A stretch of 32,000 nt of DNA from an uncultured Chloroflexia bacterium (lineage in GTDB: Bacteria; Chloroflexota; Ktedonobacteria; Ktedonobacterales; JADMIN01). The DNA lies in NCBI GenBank assembly GCA_963718915.1, contig CAVRAI010000015.1, forward strand, positions 720,001-752,000. The letters are read 5' to 3'. Within the stretch, counting starts at the first letter, position 1; each line of letters begins with the position of its first letter. The notes under the pieces are model-generated. The model saw only the letters and a list, made by a program, of their open reading frames with translations, searched no databases and had not been told where the DNA came from. This document shows positions 1 to 30,963 of the stretch, one piece after another. Position numbers and translations under genes: made by a program.

Positions 1-879
1 AGTCGGCGTCTCTCCGCTCCCGAAGTGGCGGCGCTGAGTGATGGGCCGTTGGTGAAGCTGCGACAAGACGGGCAGCAGGCGCTGGCGGAGGAGGTGCTCG
101 CGGGGTTGGATGCCTTGATTGGCGACTGTCTGGCATTCGCGCCCACGGCGCGCCCGACGGCGCAGCGGGTGCGGGAGCGGTTAGCGGCGCTGGCCGAGCA
201 GGCAGGCCTGGAGCCACTGACTATCCCGGTGTATCCACATACCGACGAGAGTAAGGCAATCTTCTGGGGCAACCTGGGCATCACCTATGGTGAGATGGGG
301 CAGCATGAGGAGCAGTTGCGCCTGCTGCGGAAGTCGATCACGCTCACGCCTGACAATCCCCAACGGCTTGAGACGCTGGGCAATGCTCTGGGCAAGGTGG
401 CTCAGGTCGAGCAGCACGCGGCAGAGGAGGCTGTTAAGCAAGGAGACCATGCCAGGGCGCAGGCGCTTGCTGCACAGGCACGCTCACGCCTGGAGGAGGC
501 GGTGGGCGTTTTCCAGGAGGCGGAGGCGCTGCTGACCCCGGAATGGCTGGCGCGCTACTCGCATCTCGCGAAGTCGATCCCATTCAATCTGGGCGCCGCG
601 CTCGGTGATCTGCAACGCTATGCCGAATCTTTGGATGCCACTCGACGCGGGCTGGAGGTCGATCTGACCGATGCCATGTCGTATCGCCAATTGGGAGTAC
701 TTTACTGGCGCTGGTCGCGCGTGGACGGAACTCCCGCTGCCACACAGGTTGAGCGGTTGGAACAGTCCGAGGCGCATATTCAGCAGGCGCTTGAGATTGC
801 CCCCCTCTACGGCGGTGGGCAAGAGTTACTCGCCTTCATCCAGCGTGAATTGGCCACAGCACGGCATAATCTCGAGTAA
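1..879 (+). CDS. 3' part of a larger gene: end of a Ser/Thr-kinase-like domain followed by TPR-like helical repeats (5' end lies outside the window)
   Basis: Frame 1 is open from base 1; the ORF track merely begins at an internal GTG at 25. The segment ...CLAFAPTARPTAQRVRERLAAL resembles the C-lobe end of Hanks-type kinases. Downstream segments such as GNLGITYGEMGQHEEQLRLLRKSITLTPDNPQ look TPR-like. Stop codon at 877-879. Confidence 0.5.
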   Translation, partial: SRRLSAPEVAALSDGPLVKLRQDGQQALAEEVLAGLDALIGDCLAFAPTARPTAQRVRERLAALAEQAGLEPLTIPVYPHTDESKAIFWGNLGITYGEMGQHEEQLRLLRKSITLTPDNPQRLETLGNALGKVAQVEQHAAEEAVKQGDHARAQALAAQARSRLEEAVGVFQEAEALLTPEWLARYSHLAKSIPFNLGAALGDLQRYAESLDATRRGLEVDLTDAMSYRQLGVLYWRWSRVDGTPAATQVERLEQSEAHIQQALEIAPLYGGGQELLAFIQRELATARHNLE

Positions 880-1113: not shown

Positions 1114-4100
1114 GTGCAGCATCTGACGATCCGCGTGGTCTGGCACGATAACAGGTGGAATGGACGGATTTGTAACGCGCCATCGCTCAATGGCTATTGT
1201 CTGGCGCAGGAGCGTATACGTAAGGATCGCGATGACGCGAAAGAGGATCGGCTGGCGGGGCGTTCATGGCGGAGCCTCAGGCGCGGCGAGTTGCCCCCAT
1301 GTGTAGCTGAATCCGGCGGCTTCATGAGCGACAACGAATGGGTACGCTCATTTGATCCACCGTTCCAGAACACCTTACCAGCAACCCATGGCGCTCTGCG
1401 CAAGACGACCATGCGCGTCGAGCCGTATACCGCGCTTGCCGTTCCCTTTCGCTGGATGCTACGCGAGCATCAGCGACGGATTGATGATAGGCTGCCAGAG
1501 CCACTCCCCGCCGACGAAACACCGCCACTCCACACGTCATGGGTGTTCAACCGCATCAGACAGGAAGCGATTGGCAGCCAGTTCTTCGGGCAACTCACAC
1601 CGGAGCAGTCACTGGTCTTCTTCTATTGCAAAGAGGGTCAACCCCTTGGCGACAGCATCTCGCGGCTGGTCGTCGGCGTTGGACGCATCCAGGCTATCGG
1701 GCTACAGAGCTACTATGATAGCGACGGTGAAGTGAGCTATCCAATCTGGGACCGCAAAATTCACCATACCATCCGGCCTGATGACGACGATGGGTTTCTG
1801 TTGCCCTATCACGACTACCTCACGCCTACTGGTGATCCCGACGAGGATCTGCGCCGCCGCAGCCTGCTGGAAACAATCGCCATCGCGGTTGACCCTGCGC
1901 ACATCCCGGCGTTCTCGTACTCGGCGGAACTGGCTTCATCCGATGTCGCCCTCGCGACGCTGATGCGCTGCCTGGATGCTGTTCGCCTTATTCGCATGCA
2001 CGGCATCGCAGACGGGACGTGGGATCAGCGCGAACAGTGGGTCAACGACCAGATCGCCGCCACATGGCGCGACCGTGGCGAATTTCCGGGCGTCGGATCC
2101 GCGCTGGAAGCGCTCGGCTTGCGTATCGGAACATCCCTGATGCTGGACCTGACGCGGCTCGGCATGATTCGCCCAGAGAGCAATCCCTGGCCTGTCGTGG
2201 ACGCCATTTTACGCGGGACGCAATCAGCGCCACTACCCTCGTATGAGCCGCACCTCGCCCCCGTACGTCTGGTCTGGGCAAATCTGCCCGACGAGCGCCG
2301 CAACCTACTCTATTTGCTTGCGCGATTTGACCTCTCACCCGAACAGGCGCGGCGCTGGTATGAGCCATCTGAGCGCGCAAAGATAACCCTCACCGCGTGT
2401 AGCGATGGCGATATCCTGGCGAATCCCTACCGTATCGCAGAAGCCGACCTGGGAGACGACACCTCACCCGCCATCACCATGGAAATTATCGACCGGGGTC
2501 TCTTCCCCGACGATGCCATCCGTGTGCATGACCCACCGCCTCTGTCAGCCGCCTTTGAAGATCACAACGACATCCGTCGAATCCGTGGCGCGTTGGTAAC
2601 TGTCCTGCGCGCGACGGCCAGGTCGGGCGACACACTGCTCAATGCAGTAGATGCCCTTGAGCGTCTGCGCAAGCTCCCAATCATCCCACCGCCAAGCAAT
2701 ATTGGCGTAGATTGGCTCACTGCCTACCGCGACCCGCTTGCAGACGCTGTCGCCGTCTATAACGTTGCATCTGGTGATAATGACAACGTCGAAATCAGCG
2801 TTGTTCAACTCACCGAGTTGCGCAAACGCGAAGACCTCGTGCGCAAAACGCTTCAGGGGAGAGCCGCCGCGCCGCTCGAATCGCTCCGGGTGGACTGGAA
2901 GTCGCTGCTTATCGAGGCTATTGGCGACGCCTACCAACCCCGGAACAAGCGCCATCACGACGCCCTGGACGAACAGGCGACGGCCCTCGAACGCATTACG
3001 TCCCGCAAGCTCTGCGCACTGACTGGACACGCGGGCACTGGCAAGACGTCGGTTATGGGCGCGCTCCTGCGCTGCCAGCGACTACGCGAGGAGGGCATCC
3101 TGTTGCTCGCGCCGACGGGCAAGGCACGGGTGCGGCTGGAGCAGACGGCAGGGAAAAATGCGGAAACACCACGTATTCGCGCCTTCACCATCGCCCAGTT
3201 CCTCTATGACCTTGGGCGGTACGACGGGGATCACCAGCGTGCGCTATTCACCGGAGACGCCACCTACAGGCACGCGCGAACCATCATCGTCGACGAAGCA
3301 TCCATGCTCACGCTGGATGACCTCGCTGCCTTACTTCTCGCCCTCGATCTCCTGCATGTGCAGCGGATCATTCTGGTCGGCGACCCAAATCAGTTGCCGC
3401 CCATTGGTGCAGGCCGCCCGTTCGCGGATCTGGTGTCATATCTCGATGCGCTAGCCACCGGCGATGGCGCTGCTGATACGGCGGATACCACAGCCGCTGG
3501 CGCGCTGGGCAAGCTCAGTATCGAGGTGCGCACACGGAGCGGAGACGCGCCCTCCGATGCGCTGCGACTCGCCTCCTGGTTCTCTCGTGGGCCACAACCC
3601 GTCGATGCCGACCGCGTACTGGATCAGGTCACTACGGGCGCGCAACTCAACGATCTGGATATCAGCTTCTGGCAAACGCCTGAAGATCTGCGTGCGCGCA
3701 TTCTGGAGAAATTCCAGACGTACCTGGGACTGGAGCATCGCAGCGACATCGCGGGCTTCGACCGCGCCCTTGGCATAGGAGAGGGTGGCCGGGTGCGCTT
3801 CGATGCGCCAGACGGCGTCGAACACTTCCAGATACTTTCGCCGACGCGCATGCGGCCACATGGCGTCTATGACCTGAATCGCTGGTTGCAGCGACGATTC
3901 CGCGCCGACGAGCTACGCAGAGCGCATTACAGCAACGGAAAGAGCCTCGGCCAGGAGGAGATTGTTCACAAGGACAAGGTTATCCAGGTTCGCAACGAAT
4001 GGCGCTGGATGTATGACCATCAGCGCCGCCTGAAGATGAGAGGCGCTCTTGCCAACGGTGAGATTGGCATAATCGCCAGAGGTCAGGGCGACTTCATGGA

Positions 4101-4821
4101 TGTAGCGTTCTCTGGCCACGCGCACCAGACCACTGGCTATATCGCGTCGCCGTATGTGGATCGTGAGTGCCCCCTGGAGCTCGCATATGCGCTGACGGTT
4201 CACAAGGCGCAGGGCAGCCAGTTTGATATTGTCTTCGTCATCATTCCTGAGCAGAGCGTGCGGCTCTCGCGCGAACTGCTCTACACGGCGCTCACCCGCT
4301 CGCGTGAACGTCTGGTGTTACTGGTGCAGGGGGATGACGCGAGCCGCCTCTATGCGTACAGCCTGCCCGGCGCGTCCGACACGACTCGCCGCAATACCAA
4401 TCTCTTTACCCCAGCGGTTCGCGACCCTGCCTCTGACTATCCAAACGCCAGATATCTCATTCACCGGACCCCCGGCGGTCAACTCGTGCGCAGTAAGTCG
4501 GAACTGGTCATCGCGAATATGCTCGAACACATGGATATCCCCTACAAATACGAGGAGCCGTTCTTTGGGGAGACCGAGCCGGGACGGCGCTTCCCAGACT
4601 TCACCTTCGCAACCGCCGCTGGCAGACGCATCATCTGGGAGCACCTCGGCATGCTCACGCTCCCCGACTATGCGCGCGGCTGGGAGGAGAAGCGTCTCTG
4701 GTACAAGAGAAACGGCTACCTTGAGGGAGCGCAATTGTTCACCACCCGTGACGACGAGCGAGGTGGGCTGGATTCACGCGACGTGCGGAAGGTCGCGGAG
4801 CGTATTCAGGCGCTCATCTGA
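1114..4821 (+). CDS. 1235-aa fusion: uncharacterised N-terminal region + SF1B RecD/TraA-like helicase + C-terminal PD-(D/E)xK-like nuclease domain
   Basis: Uninterrupted 3.7-kb ORF with GTG start and GGGAAGGGA upstream. Helicase motifs: Walker A GHAGTGKTS (nt 3025-3051), LLLAPTGKA, IIVDEASML, ILVGDPNQLPPIG, ALTVHKAQGSQFD, LLYTALTRSRERLVLL. An NPY segment (ILANPYRIAEADLG) resembles RecD2-type N-terminal regions. C-terminal aa 1112-1235: SKSELVIANMLE...RFPDFTF...IIWEHLGM, a restriction-endonuclease-like D...E pattern. The N-terminal MQHLTIRVVWHDNRWNGRICNAPSLNGYCL could not be assigned. Confidence 0.85.
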   Translation: MQHLTIRVVWHDNRWNGRICNAPSLNGYCLAQERIRKDRDDAKEDRLAGRSWRSLRRGELPPCVAESGGFMSDNEWVRSFDPPFQNTLPATHGALRKTTMRVEPYTALAVPFRWMLREHQRRIDDRLPEPLPADETPPLHTSWVFNRIRQEAIGSQFFGQLTPEQSLVFFYCKEGQPLGDSISRLVVGVGRIQAIGLQSYYDSDGEVSYPIWDRKIHHTIRPDDDDGFLLPYHDYLTPTGDPDEDLRRRSLLETIAIAVDPAHIPAFSYSAELASSDVALATLMRCLDAVRLIRMHGIADGTWDQREQWVNDQIAATWRDRGEFPGVGSALEALGLRIGTSLMLDLTRLGMIRPESNPWPVVDAILRGTQSAPLPSYEPHLAPVRLVWANLPDERRNLLYLLARFDLSPEQARRWYEPSERAKITLTACSDGDILANPYRIAEADLGDDTSPAITMEIIDRGLFPDDAIRVHDPPPLSAAFEDHNDIRRIRGALVTVLRATARSGDTLLNAVDALERLRKLPIIPPPSNIGVDWLTAYRDPLADAVAVYNVASGDNDNVEISVVQLTELRKREDLVRKTLQGRAAAPLESLRVDWKSLLIEAIGDAYQPRNKRHHDALDEQATALERITSRKLCALTGHAGTGKTSVMGALLRCQRLREEGILLLAPTGKARVRLEQTAGKNAETPRIRAFTIAQFLYDLGRYDGDHQRALFTGDATYRHARTIIVDEASMLTLDDLAALLLALDLLHVQRIILVGDPNQLPPIGAGRPFADLVSYLDALATGDGAADTADTTAAGALGKLSIEVRTRSGDAPSDALRLASWFSRGPQPVDADRVLDQVTTGAQLNDLDISFWQTPEDLRARILEKFQTYLGLEHRSDIAGFDRALGIGEGGRVRFDAPDGVEHFQILSPTRMRPHGVYDLNRWLQRRFRADELRRAHYSNGKSLGQEEIVHKDKVIQVRNEWRWMYDHQRRLKMRGALANGEIGIIARGQGDFMDVAFSGHAHQTTGYIASPYVDRECPLELAYALTVHKAQGSQFDIVFVIIPEQSVRLSRELLYTALTRSRERLVLLVQGDDASRLYAYSLPGASDTTRRNTNLFTPAVRDPASDYPNARYLIHRTPGGQLVRSKSELVIANMLEHMDIPYKYEEPFFGETEPGRRFPDFTFATAAGRRIIWEHLGMLTLPDYARGWEEKRLWYKRNGYLEGAQLFTTRDDERGGLDSRDVRKVAERIQALI

Positions 4822-12635: not shown

Positions 12636-15586
12636 ATGAGCCAGACGACTATGACTCCGGCGACCGACTCGCCAGCACCGAAACCACCACCGCCGCAATC
12701 GCCGGGTTTCTGGCGTTCGCTGGCGCGTGGCTTTCTTGGACTATGGTGGGTCTTTGTCGTCGCGCTGGCCGCTGGCGTCGCGTCGTATCTTGGCAACCAT
12801 GCCGGGCCGCTGGTCTTGCCGATCATCCCGCAGGTCGTCGCCTGGGCGCGCGCGCTGACGCTTCCCGCGCAGGTTGGGCTGGCGATCCTGATTCTGGCAT
12901 TGCTTGCGCTGATGGGCTGGCTGACGTACCTTGCCTGGCAGCATCGCCAGCGGCAGGCGGCGGAGGAGGTGGAGGCGAACGTTGCCCAGCAGGCAGCGGC
13001 CTTCACCCAGACGATGGAACATGACGTCAATCCGCGACTCGACAACATCGGGGCCACGGTGGACGAGACCAGCCGTGATGTGAAGACGCTGATTCAAGAA
13101 GGGCAGAGCGCGCCGCTGCCGCTCGTCCGCGATCTCGACCGCGTCAGCTTCAGGATGGGCGACCGCGCCGCCGCCAATTTCAGATATGTCTATGGGCCGG
13201 TGCGCGCTATCTTCGACCAGGCAACGGCTACACTGCATGACGCCGCTCAGTATATCGGGGCGAAGCAGGGCATTCTGGTGACGGGCGCGGCCAACGCGGG
13301 CAAGACCCGCCTGGGACTCGAAGCGCTCATCGCGGCGCTGCCCGACTGGGATACACTCGTCTGGAATGTTGGCGATGGCGAGAGCAGGATACCATCGGCG
13401 AAACAACTGGAAGGGCGCAGCGTCGCCGTCTTCCTCGACGACATCCAGAACTACGCCGCTGGTGGCGACATCGCGAGTGGTTCGGATGGGCGATCAGCTC
13501 AATCGTCGGTCGCTGGCCCAGGGGCGACCTTGCGGACACTCTATCAGCGCGTCTGCCAGGACTCCGCTCATGTCGTCATCGTCGCCACTTGTCGCCATGA
13601 GGACCAGAAAGCCGCCGAGGGTAGCCTGGGCTGGTTTTTCGAGAAGCTCGACGAAGTAGCGATCCCCACGTTCAACCGTGATGAAGGGTCATTGGAGGCG
13701 CGGGAAATCATCGCCGAGTTCGCGGAGCAAGGCGCGATTCGCGACGAGTGGAACGGCACGCTCGGCTCGCTGGTGCTCGGCCTGGGCCGCAAACGCCAGC
13801 AATATAGAGACCTGGTGCTTCAGCATAATCCCGATAATCCTGCCGTCCCCGTGCTGCGCGCGATGAAGCTGCTGACCATTGGTGGCGTCCTCGATCTGAC
13901 GGGAAGCCGCGTGCGCGCCGTCTGCGACCAGATGCTGCACAGGTCATCGCTGGCAGTGTTGGGCGAAGCATGGGATGACGCGCTTGAGGAGTTGAAACGC
14001 CTGGAGTTCGTCGCGATTACCCCGACCGATGATGGCGACGTGCGGGTGGCGATTCTCAAGGATGATTACTTCAAATATGTCGTGGACGACTATCCGGAGG
14101 ACTACCAGCTTCAGCAACACCGCGCTGGCCTATTGAATGTGCTGGTATCGCTCAAAGACGACGATGCCCTGTTCGATCTGGGTAATGGATTCTACTTTGA
14201 CGATCTATTTACCTCGGCCCTCGCCGCCTACGAGCAGGCGATCCGCCTCAACCCGACAATGCCACCGCCTATAACAACATGGGCACGACCCTCGGCAAGC
14301 TCGAACGCTACGCCGAGGCCCTCGCCGCCTACGAGCAGGCGATCCGCCTCAACCCGACCGATGCCACCGCCTATTACAACATGGGCACGACCCTCGGCAA
14401 GCTCGAACGCTACGCCGAGGCCCTCGCCGCCTACGAGCAGCGATCCGCCTCAACCCGACCGATGCCACCGCCTATAACAACATGGGCAATACCCTCGATA
14501 CGCTCGAACGCTACGCCGAGGCCCTCGCCGCCTACGAGCAGGCGATCCGCCTCAACCCGACCGATGCACCGCCTATAACAACATGGGCACGACCCTCGGC
14601 AAGCTCGAACGCTACGCCGAGGCCCTCGCCGCCTACGAGCAGGCGATCCGCCTCAACCCGACCGATGCCACCGCCTATAACAACATGGGCACGACCCTCG
14701 GCAAGCTCGAACGCTACGCCGAGGCCCTCGCCGCCTACGAGCAGGCGATCCGCCTCAACCCGACATATGCCACCGCCTATAACAACATGGGCACGACCCT
14801 CGATACGCTCGAACGCTACGCCGAGGCCCTCGCCGCCTACGAGCAGGCGATCCGCCTCAACCCGACCGATGCCACCGCCTATAACAACATGGGCAATACC
14901 CTCGGCAAGCTCGAACGCTACGCCGAGGCCCTCGCCGCCTACGAGCAGGCGATCCGCCTCAACCCGACCGATGCCACCGCCTATAACAACATGGGCACGA
15001 CCCTCGATACGCTCGAACGCTACGCCGAGGCCCTCGCCGCCTACGAGCAGGCGATCCGCCTCAACCCGACATATGCCACCGCCTATAACAACATGGGCAA
15101 TACCCTCGATACGCTCGAACGCTACGCCGAGGCCCTCGCCGCCTACGAGCAGGCGATCCGCCTCAACCCGACATATGCCACCGCCTATAACAACATGGGC
15201 AATACCCTCGGCAAGCTCGAACGCTACGCCGAGGCCCTCGCCGCCTACGAGCAGGCGATCCGCCTCAACCCGACCTATGCCACCGCCTATAACAACATGG
15301 GCACGACCCTCGATACGCTCGAACGCTACGCCGAGGCCCTCCAAGCATTCGAGGAAGCCATCAAACTCGATCCCAACAGTGCAGGCGCCTGGCGTAACAA
15401 GAGTGTTACGCTGGCTCTACAGGAACAGTTCGATGAGGCGCTTATCGCCTGTGACAAAGCGATTGAATTGGCCCACAAGACGCCAATGGCTGGAAGTTAA
15501 AAGCCGCGATCCTCGATGAGCTTGGGCGTGAGGATGAGGCGCGCGCCGCCGAGGAACGGGCGAAACAACTGGAAGAGCTATATTAG
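12636..15586 (+). pseudogene. Membrane-anchored P-loop NTPase fused to a TPR array of about 14 repeats (STAND/NLR-like); reading frame interrupted by four 1-nt deletions
   Basis: ATG 12636 with GGAGG 8 nt upstream. TM helices at aa ~33-52 and ~80-100. Walker A GAANAGKT (13284-13307) and Walker B VAVFLDD (13422-13442). The TPR reading continues across four ORF-track fragments (12636.., 14279.., 14482.., 14583..) and a fifth frame that encodes PQDANGWKLKAAILDELGREDEARAAEERAKQLEELY and ends at TAG 15584-15586. Frame shifts 0>2>1>0>2 occur at about 14259, 14441, 14568 and 15472. Confidence 0.75.
14216..15341 (+). repeat. Tandem array of 11 near-identical 102-bp units, each encoding one 34-aa TPR
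   Basis: Units begin at 14261, 14363, 14464, 14566, 14667, 14769, 14871, 14973, 15075, 15177 and 15279. The spacing is 102 bp except where a base is missing. Consensus: ATAYNNMG[T/N]TL[GK/DT]LERYAEALAAYEQAIRLNPT[D/Y]. Confidence 0.95.
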
Positions 15587-28195: not shown

Positions 28196-29042
28196 ATGCC
28201 ACGCCATCTGGTCTGCCTGACGTTCGACTTTGACGCGCTCTCGCTCTGGCTCGCGCGCGGGAATCACCTCGCCGACGCCGATCTCGCAGGGGGAGTTTGG
28301 CGCGGTTGGCGCGGAGCGCATCCTGGCGTTGCTTGCCAGCCACAGCATCCACGCCACCTGGTTCATTCCCGGCCATACCATCGAGACGTATCCCGACCTG
28401 TGCGGGCGTATCCACGCCGCGGGCCACGAGATCGGCCACCACGGTTACGCGCACGAAGCGCCGGTCAATCTCGCGCGCGAGGCGGAGGAGGCGGTACTGG
28501 TGCGCGGGAACGAGGCGATTCGCAGTCTTACGGGCGCTCCGGCGACCGGCTACCGCTCGCCCGCCTGGGATCTCAGCCCGCATTCGGTCGATTTGCTGCT
28601 GGCCCACGGCTTCATCTACGACAGCAGCATGATGGCGAACGACTACACGCCGTACTACGCGCGACACGGGGACGTGATTCCGCTCGACCAACCAGCCCAG
28701 TTTGGGGAGACGACGCGGCTGATCGAGCTACCGGTCAGTTGGTCGCTGGACGACTTTCCCCACTTCGAGTATCTCTGGACGGCGACACATTTGCAGGGCG
28801 GTCTACGCCGCGCCGATGACGTGCTCGCCAACTGGCTCGACGACTTCCGCTACATGGCGCGCACGCAGGAGTGGGGCGTGCTCACGCTCACCTTCCATCC
28901 GCAGGTAATCGGGCGCGGGCATCGCATGCTGATGCTGGAGCGGCTGATCGAGCAACTCGAAGGGCTGGGAGCCACCTTCGCTCGTATGGATGCCGTGGCC
29001 CAGGAGTTTGCCCAGCGCAGCGCAACGCCCGGCACGAACTGA
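28196..29042 (+). pseudogene. Polysaccharide deacetylase (NodB/PuuE-like) with a +1 frameshift near codon 22
   Basis: ATG 28196 encodes MPRHLVCLTFDFDALSLWLARG, the family N-terminus including the FDFD motif. The family sequence then continues in another frame (ITSPTPISQGEFGAVGAERILALLASHSIHATWFIPGH...HEIGHHGYAHE). Removing one G from the run at 28259-28261 restores a single ORF. Confidence 0.7.
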
Positions 29043-29086: not shown

Positions 29087-29134
29087 GACAGGGCAGCCAG
29101 ACATAGTATGTCGCGTAGCGGAGAGGCAGTGGCC

Positions 29135-30450
29135 ATGAGCGCATTTCATACGACCTTCGTCAGCCATGCCCACGCCGATAACGACCTCTGCGACCGCTAC
29201 GTCGCGGCGCTGCGGGCGCGCGGGATCGATATCTGGTACGACCGAGACAACGCGCAGAACGGCCATCTGCTCGGCTCAGCGATCCAGGATGAACTGAAGC
29301 GCCGTTCGGCGTTCGTGCTGCTGATGACCGAGGCGTCGCTCACCTCATTCTGGGTTGACCTGGAGACGCAGACCTGGCTTGGCCTGATGGCGCAACAGCG
29401 TTCGCGCCTCTTGCTGCCCGTGCGTATTGGCTCCTGCGCCGTGCCGCCAATGCTCAACGCCTTCTTCTGGGTCGATGCGCAGGCGATGCCGTTCGAGAAA
29501 GCGATTGACGCTATCGCAGCCGCGCTGAACGGTACTCCGTCGCCGTCGGCAAGCCACCGTTACCCCACGCCGCGCGACACATTGCCGCCGCTCGGCCCGG
29601 CGCCCGCGCCCGCCAACAGCGCACCCGCGCACCACCTGACGCCGATGCCGCTCTACAATCTGGGCTTTCGCGGCTACACCATCGGCGGCATTGAATGCAT
29701 TCTGCCGCCGCTCTGCCCCGTGCCTGGTGGCGTATTCACCATGGGCAGCGACAAGAGCCGCGATAAAGAGGCGCAAGATAGGGAGACGCCGCAGTATCCG
29801 GTCGAGGTGGACAGCTTCGCCATCGGCCAGCACCCCGTCACCGTCGCCGAGTATGCCTGCGCCGTCCGCGCGAAAGTAGTTCGTGAGCCGCCACAATACG
29901 AGTCAGGTGGCAACAAATATGGGCCAGATTGGGTGACGCAACATACGCATCCTGACCATCCGGTGGTCTGCGTTTCCTGGGACGACGCCATAGCGTATCT
30001 GAAATGGCTGGCAAAGACTGACGGGCCAGCCGTGGCGACTGCCGACCGAGGCGGAGTGGGAGAAGGCGGCGCGTGGCGATGGACGGGCGCATCTATCCCT
30101 GGGGCGATACGTTCGACAAGGCGCGCTGCAACACGGGCGAAAGCGGCATCGGCACGACCACGCCCGTCGGTCGTTATCCCAACGGCGCGAGTCCCTATCA
30201 CGCGCAGGATATGGCCGGCAACGTCTGGGAGTGGACGAGCAGCCTGTTTCAGCCCTATCCCTACCGCAAAAACGACGGACGGGAGAATCCAGATTCTACT
30301 GGTAATCGAGTGCTGCGTGGCGGTTCGTGGAGCGACAATTCCAGGGTTGCGCGCGCGGCCTACCGCTTCGACTTCTACAGTCCGGCCAACTTCAACGTCG
30401 ACGGAGGGTTCCGTCTGGCTCTGGCGCGTGCGGCGGCTGGTTCAGCATAA
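29135..30450 (+). pseudogene. TIR domain fused to an FGE/SUMF1-like (non-catalytic) domain; interrupted by two +1 frameshifts
   Basis: ATG 29135 with GGAGAGG 8 nt upstream. TIR: TFVSHAHADNDLCDRYVAALRARGIDIWYDRDN...AFVLLMTEASLTSFWVDLE. Pro-rich linker. FGE-like: PGGVFTMGSD...YPVEVDSFAIGQHPVTVAEYACAV...VVCVSWDDAIAYLKWLAK. The family sequence then continues in a second frame (TGQPWRLPTEAEWEKAARGDGR, 30021-30086) and a third frame (DGRIYPWGD...NVWEWT...RVLRGGSW...GGFRLA, ending at 30450). Confidence 0.75.
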
Positions 30451-30735
30451 TTCTCTGGTTCTGATTTCTGAATTGCATTTACAATAGAATAACACTGACA
30501 GCAGAAATGGAATGGCGGGGTGTGTTTCTGGCCGCGCGTAGCGCGGAAAATTGGGGGAAATCTAACGTCTCGCCACCAAAAGCCGCTCGTCACCTGTATG
30601 ATCGCTGATGGCCGTTGCCTACCGCAAAGTCCTGCCCTTGAGCCTGCGGAACGATCCGCCTCGTCGTAGCAAGCGTGGGAAGCATGCGGGAGGTCGCTCC
30701 TCGTTGCGTGCGCTCCATGGGGCAGACCGAACCCA

Positions 30736-30963
30736 GTGCTGCGTGGCGGCTCGTGGAACAACAATTCCAGGAACGCGCGCGTGGCCTACCGCAACGACAA
30801 CCAATGGGACAACTTCAACAACAACGAAGGGTTCCGTCTGGCTCTGGCGCGTGCGGCGGATGATCCAGCGTTTCCGGCCAGTAAATCCGCACGAGTCCCG
30901 TTCGCGGGAAATCGACGGACGCGGCCACCATATGCTGAACCAGCGCGGTCATGTCCCGGCTGA
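30736..30963 (+). pseudogene. 5'-truncated remnant of a second FGE-like domain gene
   Basis: [41 protein letters not shown] parallels 30313-30430. It includes a 31-bp identical run, GGGTTCCGTCTGGCTCTGGCGCGTGCGGCGG. No intact N-terminal portion exists upstream; there is an in-frame stop at 30667. Confidence 0.6.

Follow-up and report, generated by a model that had tools for sequence, protein, structure and literature searches.

A homogenised TPR array with variation at predicted ligand-face codons in a putative membrane-tethered, NLR-like NTPase gene of an uncultured Chloroflexia bacterium

A 32,000-nt stretch of DNA from an uncultured soil Chloroflexia bacterium of the order Ktedonobacterales (GenBank assembly GCA_963718915.1, contig CAVRAI010000015.1, positions 720,001 to 752,000 of the forward strand; hereafter the window) carries a gene, at 12636..15586 on the + strand, that is broken by four single-base deletions as assembled. 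After their repair, its product would have two transmembrane helices, then a P-loop NTPase of divergent STAND type that includes a winged-helix region, and lastly 14 tetratricopeptide repeats (TPRs). Ten of these TPRs are nearly identical in DNA and the substitutions among them fall in just six codons, a pattern to which a preliminary description of the sequence had drawn attention. Our favored interpretation, which we hold with some reserve, is that the array forms the ligand-sensing solenoid of a membrane-tethered NLR-like (STAND-type) NTPase and that it has been homogenised and reshuffled by recombination. The locus provides a concrete case in which two-state cassettes, predicted to lie on the ligand face, occur in every combination and in which the effector-type module has been swapped at one chromosomal site.

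The TPR array and its variation

Only one large array was returned by Tandem Repeats Finder for the window; it spans 14216-15341 with a period of 102 bp, 11.1 copies and 95% matches, in agreement with the near-identical 102-bp array described previously. Eleven copies at 95% identity rule out a chance occurrence. When the array is cut at conserved anchors, eleven repeat periods are obtained, three of which are 101 bp long owing to three single-base deletions within the array. Read as TPRs, the array holds 10 complete units (with starts at 14261, 14363, 14464, 14566, 14667, 14769, 14871, 14973, 15075, and 15177), flanked by two half-homogenised ones, namely helix B of the unit that begins at 14160 and helix A of the unit that begins at 15279; the array begins and ends in one repeat phase, at codons 20-21 of a TPR. 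No copy of the unit was found in the window outside the array. Pfam TPR_1 matched the repaired protein with E=2e-123 in 13 stretches, each aligned over positions 1-34 of the canonical 34-residue TPR, and the register of the array unit agrees with that of consensus TPR proteins whose structures are solved. The TPR numbering proposed in the preliminary description was thus upheld, and structural positions 4, 7, 8, 11, 20, 24, 27, and 32 are all occupied by compatible residues.

Substitutions among the 10 units are limited to unit positions 13, 26, 27, 35, 36, 38, 99, and 100, which correspond to codons 5 (AAC/TAC), 9 (ACG/AAT), 12 (GGC/GAT), 13 (AAG/ACG), 33 (ACC/ACA), and 34 (GAT/TAT), while 28 of the 34 codons show no difference whatsoever. 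These are the substitution codons listed earlier, although they are not the only differences, as had been claimed, because the three 1-bp deletions had been missed. Similarly, the single synonymous difference reported at Thr33 is indeed one variable site, but ACA occurs there in four units, every time adjoining TAT. All four combinations of T/N9 with GK/DT12-13 were confirmed, and with D/Y34 added, all eight possible haplotypes are present among the 10 units. Since every combination occurs, there is no linkage among these three sites, as if they had been shuffled, even though just 7 nt separate the variable bases of codon 9 from those of codon 12. Amino-acid identity among the 10 units (residues 543-882, 340 residues) averages 93.1% with a minimum of 85.3%, which places the array among highly internally conserved (HIC) repeats as defined by >85% identity over at least 100 residues (PMC4986451) and agrees with the earlier assignment to that class.

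Variable codons and the ligand face

The most variable positions of TPRs in general are 2, 5, 9, 12, 13, 33, and 34, all seven of which lie on the concave face, and HOP contacts its ligands through positions 2, 5, 6, 9, 12, and 13 (Magliery and Regan, PMC1261162). All five amino-acid-variable positions of the array are inside this seven-position concave set (chance 7.5e-5), and the silent codon 33 belongs to it as well (chance for all six, 5.2e-6). By sequence register, then, the earlier statement that the variable residues occupy the binding face was borne out. Because a single-sequence AlphaFold2 model of the TPR part (14583-15497) was unusable (pLDDT 50.8, long fused helices), assignment to the concave face rests on this register and on the literature.

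A comparison with other members of the family showed where such variation tends to fall. In 13 paralogous arrays with mean unit identities of 59-75%, within-array entropy peaks at positions 2, 9, 12, 34, 5, 13, and 6, and drops to near zero across helix B. Convex-face positions 18, 22, 26, and 29, by comparison, vary as much as the concave positions do in 13 divergent arrays from this family. The difference between similar-unit and divergent arrays indicates that homogenised arrays keep their variation on the ligand face specifically.

Gene organization, the NTPase core, and its protein family

The gene, after repair of its reading frame, is organized as follows:

12636..15586, + strand: whole gene, 984 aa after repair of four 1-bp deletions
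12636..13100, + strand: N-terminal module (residues 1-155), two transmembrane-like segments followed by a charged, probably helical linker
13101..14159, + strand: P-loop NTPase and helical/winged-helix core
13284-13307, + strand: Walker A motif, GAANAGKT
13422-13442, + strand: Walker B motif, VAVFLDD
13746-13793, + strand: sequence motif that is the NTPase family signature, EWNGTLGSLVLGL
14160..14260, + strand: first TPR, with a degenerate helix A (DDALFDLGNGFYFDDLF) and a helix B that, from 14216, is already homogenised repeat
14216..15341, + strand: homogenised 102-bp tandem array, 11.1 copies, with 10 complete TPR units at 14261-15278
15342..15586, + strand: divergent C-terminal part, comprising helix B of the hybrid unit, two more TPRs, and the stop codon (15584-15586)

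Ten of the 14 TPRs are homogenised, with a degenerate one ahead of them and a hybrid and two divergent ones behind. Hydrophobic, transmembrane-like segments lie at about residues 28-53 and 75-100 of the repaired protein, and the resulting two-helix module is a putative membrane anchor or effector. In an alignment of 18 family sequences, the Walker motifs occupy the most conserved columns. Walker A shows no variation at its G, K, and T, nor does Walker B at its first D, and at least 90% of the sequences keep the second D. An AlphaFold2 model of residues 156-530, built from the family alignment (pLDDT 86.3, pTM 0.85), places helices together with a beta-hairpin (strands 304-308 and 314-318) after the P-loop domain. 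The best PDB matches of this core in Foldseek were human SAMD9, archaeal and eukaryotic ORC/Cdc6, FtsH, Avs5 (SIR2-STAND), AVAST5, and Apaf-1, and the model thus places the core in the STAND and AAA+-related neighborhood with an NTPase plus winged-helix layout. Among the 18 family members, 14 matched Pfam nSTAND_NTPase5, 15 matched AAA_16, and eight matched nSTAND3 (E<=0.01); the best nSTAND_NTPase5 E-value among relatives was 6e-6, which is still weak. Pfam returned neither NB-ARC nor NACHT.

The core has its homologues among "TPR repeat proteins" from Ktedonobacterales, from "uncultured Chloroflexia" metagenome-assembled genomes (MAGs), and from Reticulibacter mediterranei. The family is small: out of 1.84 billion, 174 cluster representatives reach E<=1e-30 and 422 reach E<=1e-10, and a scan of genome contigs for relatives returned only paralogues that were 35-43% identical. 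Most members share the focal protein's short N terminus with two transmembrane helices. Other modules occur at this end in some homologues: precomputed Pfam matches place TIR_2 at the N terminus of one protein (P0004) and DUF4062 behind a membrane segment in two others (P0007 and P0012), and inspection by eye points to a possible restriction-endonuclease-type (nuclease-like) module in P0026 and a possible helix-turn-helix region in P0036. Exchange of N-terminal modules on a conserved NTPase-repeat chassis is a hallmark of NLR-like proteins (PMC4986451). An NLR-like (STAND-like) architecture of the focal protein, with the array as its C-terminal sensor-type domain, is therefore supported.

Related loci and alleles

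Two contigs, L001 and L002, are syntenic with the window, with the common gene order rho, focal gene, nadB-nadC-nadA, metallo-beta-lactamase, and MFS. Their NTPase cores, 92-94% identical to that of the window, are better conserved than the housekeeping genes that flank them, which are ~79-87% identical (DNA). At the same chromosomal site, beside rho and nadBCA, both carry a non-homologous N-terminal module of ~230 residues (8825-9530 in L001, 289-995 in L002), and the switch between modules lies near window position 13120. Their arrays comprise ~3.6 units in L001 and ~2.6 in L002, of a related but distinct type (AAYDEAIRLNP...AYYNKG), and two units of the window type are present in P0003, an orthologue with 63% identity. 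Toward closer relatives, unit counts rise from 2 (P0003) through about 3 (L002) and about 4 (L001) to 11 (L003 and the window), all of them taken from error-prone metagenome contigs.

The closest relative, L003, is a 3.4-kb contig that has the N-terminal type of the window and can be considered a strain-level allele. Its divergence from the window varies in a mosaic fashion along the contig:

Upstream: 0.27%
N-terminal module: 0.43%
NTPase core: 3.4%
5' half of the array: 16%
Last six units: 0.35%
C terminus: 1.3%

The last six units of L003 have the cassette order of window units 6-11, with only 2 substitutions in 566 bp. Both fall at hypervariable codons: GAT vs TAT at codon 34 (unit 10) and TAC vs AAC at codon 5 (unit 11). 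The first five units, on the other hand, belong to the L001/L002 type or to a third one, so that this allele differs from the window solely at cassette codons in one half of the array and wholesale in the other. Either the homogenised unit overwrote the 5' half of the window array or L003 has recombined in its own 5' half. At the two substituted codons of the last six units, the junction of L003 (ACC GAT GCC ACC GCC TAT TAC) is identical to that between window units 1 and 2, as would be expected from a short conversion tract between units. Comparison across relatives, which had been suggested as a check for polymorphism, thus revealed differences in unit number and composition; the closest allele, however, also has 11 units, six of them in the same order. 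We regard this allele-level evidence as a useful illustration that depends on the sequences of two error-prone contigs, and L003 itself carries many indels. At 2253-2530, within its array, L003 also has 2.5 copies of another unit of ~111-113 nt (ALTACD.AIRLNPTLAQAWGNK...), which is absent from the window, L001, and L002; because of the many indels there, its true period may be 102.

An exact-pattern scan of JGI metagenome contigs for the array unit gave 0 matches, and a protein search with the array gave nothing above 62% identity and no further alleles in the databases searched. The best database matches of the array (50-62%; proteins P0063-P0084) are TIR-TPR and Ser/Thr-kinase-TPR proteins of Ktedonobacteria. 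They have the helix-B motif EALAAYEQAIRLNP in common with the array, so several protein families of the lineage make use of this TPR subtype.

Frameshifts and sequence quality

As assembled, the gene is represented by ORFs (open reading frames) 12636-14477, 14279-14578, and 14482-15519 / 14583-15500, since its reading frame is broken by four single-base deletions:

14258..14259, + strand: first frameshift, ACATAT -> ACAAT, at the polymorphic codon pair 33/34
14440..14441, + strand: second frameshift, in a GG run, CAGGCG -> CAGCG, which puts the stop codon 14475-14477 in frame
14567..14568, + strand: third frameshift, in a CC run, GCCACC -> GCACC
15474..15475, + strand: fourth frameshift, in a C run, GCCCCACAAG -> GCCCACAAG (CCCC -> CCC; L003 has CCCC)

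The fourth deletion lies 133 bp downstream of the array, in the unique C-terminal part. Compensation among the frameshifts was considered, as the three array deletions total -3 and return to the original frame, but the stop codon at 14475-14477 intervenes and the frame is not rescued. The repeat unit also has a second sense frame and one antisense frame without stop codons, and spurious ORFs arise from the array at 14482-15519 (+; 345 aa, "PPPITTWARPSASSNATPRPS...") and 14532-15344 (-; 270 aa, antisense). Caution is warranted, as gene callers split the focal gene and out-of-frame "PPPITTWARPS" proteins can be emitted from such arrays.

At least seven frame-breaking indels occur in the window, four in the focal gene, two in a TIR/FGE-sulfatase gene, and one in a polysaccharide deacetylase gene. 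Among the indels resolved to a sequence context, three of the four focal deletions and the deacetylase insertion are homopolymer-length changes. The deacetylase indel suggests that such changes also reach beyond immune-type genes. The 1.1-kb array contains three deletions and zero private substitutions, an indel-only spectrum that would fit long-read consensus error better than natural decay. All three of these deletions sit in the 5' half, where the L003 allele differs, and mixed read pile-ups are thus a plausible cause. L001-L003 are ENA contigs with Flye-style names and many split genes of their own, and the more distant genomic relatives are nanopore-only MAGs from Microflora Danica (Flye assembly, one Medaka polishing round). 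Considering that there are at least seven indels, mostly in homopolymers where resolved, and that the relatives come from long reads, we prefer consensus error to pseudogenisation: the four deletions are probably errors of this kind, and genuine inactivating mutations are a substantial second possibility.

Several other genes of the window are uninterrupted, including rho, nadB, nadC, nadA, mutL, and those for an MFS transporter, a metallo-beta-lactamase-fold protein, a methyltransferase, an S9-type hydrolase, and a 1235-aa helicase. For nadA, nadC, the FAD domain of nadB, and MutL_C, essentially the whole single-domain Pfam profile was aligned. A plot of GC3 (G+C at third codon positions) by frame across the window gave too weak a signal to reveal frameshifts.

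Proposed mechanism and alternative explanations

We propose that unequal crossing-over and short-tract gene conversion would keep the 102-bp units near-identical in DNA, and that the same recombination would alter unit number and reshuffle the cassettes N/Y5, T/N9, GK/DT12-13, and D/Y34. With these cassettes on the concave, ligand-contacting face, their reshuffling would give strains different binding surfaces on a constant scaffold. The TPR domain may bind a ligand, possibly a phage or competitor protein, and binding would release NTP-dependent oligomerisation, by analogy with characterised STAND/NLR proteins. Oligomerisation would then activate the N-terminal module, here the two-helix segment acting at the membrane and, in relatives, a TIR, DUF4062, or possible nuclease-like domain. 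A recognition function and a role in immunity or conflict are suggested by the same analogy.

Several findings weigh against this interpretation. The preliminary description had taken the differences to be only non-synonymous and, by analogy with NLR-like receptors for which diversifying selection is reported, had suggested a fast-evolving recognition surface. Viewed codon by codon the former is correct, but Nei-Gojobori counting across units gave pS (proportion of synonymous differences) 0.052, pN (non-synonymous) 0.034, and pN/pS 0.64, because the two-base codon swaps (ACG/AAT, GGC/GAT) include silent third-position steps, which are partly or wholly synonymous. The argument from exclusively non-synonymous change to selection was dropped after this count, and diversifying selection is not demonstrable from the array, though it is plausible. 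The silent third-position differences suggest that the alternative cassettes are old and have been retained through homogenisation, rather than being fresh mutations. Furthermore, the presence of all haplotypes is by itself not significant (permutation P = 0.065), and the variable positions are the least constrained positions of any TPR. The core of the window protein scored 17.9-19.1 bits against Pfam nSTAND_NTPase5, below the curated cutoff of 34; PADLOC defence-system models gave no match beyond weak generic TPR and spurious ones; and the flanking genes (rho, nadBCA) are housekeeping genes. The gene, with its frame broken four times, may be dead, and its close relatives all come from error-prone long-read metagenome contigs, L003 possibly being a chimeric consensus.

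The most serious alternative, which we nevertheless consider unlikely, is a recent neutral expansion with or without pseudogenisation, in which the units are young duplicates of a few founders that already differed at unconstrained surface positions. Near-identity would then be a sign of youth instead of continuing concerted evolution, the variation would be left over and not selected, and the frameshifts would be real, in a gene that is decaying. The pN/pS of 0.64 and the four frame-breaking deletions are consistent with this, as is the fact that the window's second TIR-type gene is likewise frame-broken; the distant orthologues, with just 2-4 units, would point to lineage-specific expansion. 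However, four single-base deletions with no private substitution in 1.1 kb are typical of long-read consensus error, and decay is further countered by the homopolymer indel in an ordinary polysaccharide deacetylase gene. A neutral expansion would also need several recombination events within 7-60 nt to produce eight haplotypes from three sites. In addition, the same positions vary in the 13 paralogous arrays while convex-face positions do not, and the homogenised tract appears to have overwritten 5' units still common to L003, L001, and L002.

An assembly artefact, whereby collapse, expansion, or consensus smoothing created the unit number, order, or near-identity, is improbable. Reasons for suspicion are the indels already described (at least seven in 32 kb, three of them in the array half where the co-occurring L003 allele differs) and the origin of the closest relatives, whose Flye-style contigs have many split genes, as well as of the related nanopore-only MAGs. 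Yet a separate contig, L003, repeats six consecutive units with the same cassette order and flanks, orthologues contain the same unit type, and an array of 1.1 kb would be shorter than typical long reads. Smoothing, moreover, would not be expected to yield clean alternative cassettes confined to six codons.

We attach equally little weight to the idea that the TPR solenoid serves as a membrane-anchored scaffold of variable length, or belongs to an ordinary STAND signal transducer, and recognises nothing foreign. Neighbors that are housekeeping genes rather than a defence island would accord with such a role, as would the lack of a PADLOC match and the occurrence of similar TPR units in kinase-TPR proteins of the same bacterial class. 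TIR and nuclease domains, however, are typical death and defence effectors. In homologues of the focal protein the N terminus has been exchanged for TIR or DUF4062 (precomputed Pfam) or, as judged by eye, for a possible nuclease-like module. The ligand face is moreover where variation clusters, and highly internally conserved repeats are reported to be enriched in NLR-type proteins (PMC4986451).

Hypermutation by a diversity-generating retroelement (DGR) is effectively refuted as the source of the variable codons: although a DGR-like variable-repeat/template-repeat pair exists elsewhere in the window (30304-30446 and 30730-30869) and DGRs are reported to diversify sensors in multicellular bacteria (PMC10907252), the differences among units are not adenine-specific (T/G, T/C, and G/T are included), no template copy of the TPR unit occurs outside the array, and no reverse-transcriptase domain was detected among the long window ORFs scanned with Pfam.

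A bolder form of our own proposal is that the array is a running combinatorial device, in which conversion keeps neutral sites identical and re-deals three to four two-state cassettes, and in which the 1-bp indels may even serve as on/off switches. This is a long shot. Were it true, each cell lineage would have its own "word" of TPR letters, a bacterial, recombination-driven counterpart of variable lymphocyte receptors or antigenic-variation cassettes, housed in a membrane-tethered NLR of a multicellular bacterium. Independently of this speculation, if accurate reads confirm the sequence, the locus would be a tractable model for repeat shuffling in bacterial NLR-type sensors, as its few cassettes would make ligand specificity directly testable.

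Comparison with known systems

A close parallel is offered by the HIC repeats in NLR-like NB-ARC/NACHT-TPR proteins of fungi (e.g., Podospora anserina Pa_2_10340; Dyrka et al. 2014, PMC4986451), which have the same tripartite effector-NTPase-TPR layout. As in the focal locus, their units are >85% identical over >100 aa with variable positions on the concave face, repeat number differs between strains or, for the focal locus, between its more distant relatives, and N-terminal domains are exchanged combinatorially (PMC4986451). Positive selection has been reported for the fungal repeats (PMC4986451), whereas pN/pS in the focal array is 0.64. The focal protein differs further in that its host is bacterial, its NTPase belongs to a small nSTAND5/AAA_16-like family rather than to NB-ARC/NACHT, and its N terminus is a two-helix membrane module.

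Ktedonobacteria are filamentous Chloroflexota. In bacterial NLRs of filamentous lineages, repeat units are 80-90% identical and rapid diversification has been proposed (bioRxiv 10.1101/2020.01.06.895854); these proteins are of the same architecture class, and from the same type of organism, as the focal locus. Unlike the present case, NLRs were defined in that study by NB-ARC/NACHT and were described without detail at the level of cassettes or alleles (bioRxiv 10.1101/2020.01.06.895854). Neither an amyloid motif nor a Bell-domain partner was seen adjoining the focal gene. The literature already mentions TPR and WD repeats of high internal conservation among bacterial NLR-like proteins, with a proposal that they diversify as fast as in fungi, and we found no cassette- or allele-level example in the literature consulted.

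The nSTAND families of prokaryotic conflict systems are reportedly to be credited to Kaur et al. To our knowledge, Avs sensors are in general irregular and not near-identical arrays. The nSTAND3 (PF20720), nSTAND5 (PF25199), and Avs/AVAST anti-phage STAND proteins resemble the focal protein in having a P-loop NTPase, a winged helix, and a TPR-like sensor, which in SeAvs7 is a bilobed TPR domain enveloping its target (PMC13581612). The likeness extends to swappable effectors, including TIR and, in the Avs/AVAST literature, nuclease domains, and to the core fold, which matches Avs5 and AVAST5. In contrast to those systems, matches of the focal protein fall below curated Pfam cutoffs, no PADLOC model matches it, and its family has no known defence phenotype.

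Identical stacked TPR repeats fold as a regular superhelix. The focal unit is in register with the designed proteins CTPR3/CTPR8 (PDB 1NA0, 2FO7, 8BU0, 9QHB) and compatible with them at the signature positions. Unlike these designs, the focal array is natural, has alternative residues on the ligand face, and is fused to an NTPase.

Other features of the window

A gene for a TIR_2 plus FGE-sulfatase (C-type-lectin fold) protein lies at 29108-30490 (+). About 425 bp downstream there is a second, non-coding-looking copy of its C-terminal ~140 bp, so that the repeats occupy 30304-30446 and 30730-30869. The downstream copy is rich in AAC (Asn codons) where the gene copy differs, and the core mismatches are mostly at its adenines; from sequence, the pair looks like a DGR variable repeat and template repeat. 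There are also a few non-adenine mismatches and one 3-nt indel, and the Pfam scan of long ORFs mentioned above gave no reverse-transcriptase domain. The gene itself is broken by two frameshifts within ~75 bp (~30010 and ~30085) and must be read in three frames.

The polysaccharide deacetylase gene at 28196-29042 (+) is split by an apparent GG -> GGG insertion near 28260, which leaves the N-terminal "MPRHLVCLTFDFDALSLWLARG" in a different frame from the remainder. At 1114-4821 (+), the 1235-aa protein has a central AAA_30 / UvrD_C_2 (RecD-like) helicase between an N-terminal region of ~600 residues that no Pfam family matched and a C-terminal extension. In L001 the C-terminal part of this protein is kept at 78% DNA identity. 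Lastly, another TPR protein is encoded at 25-879 (+), and the window begins inside it.

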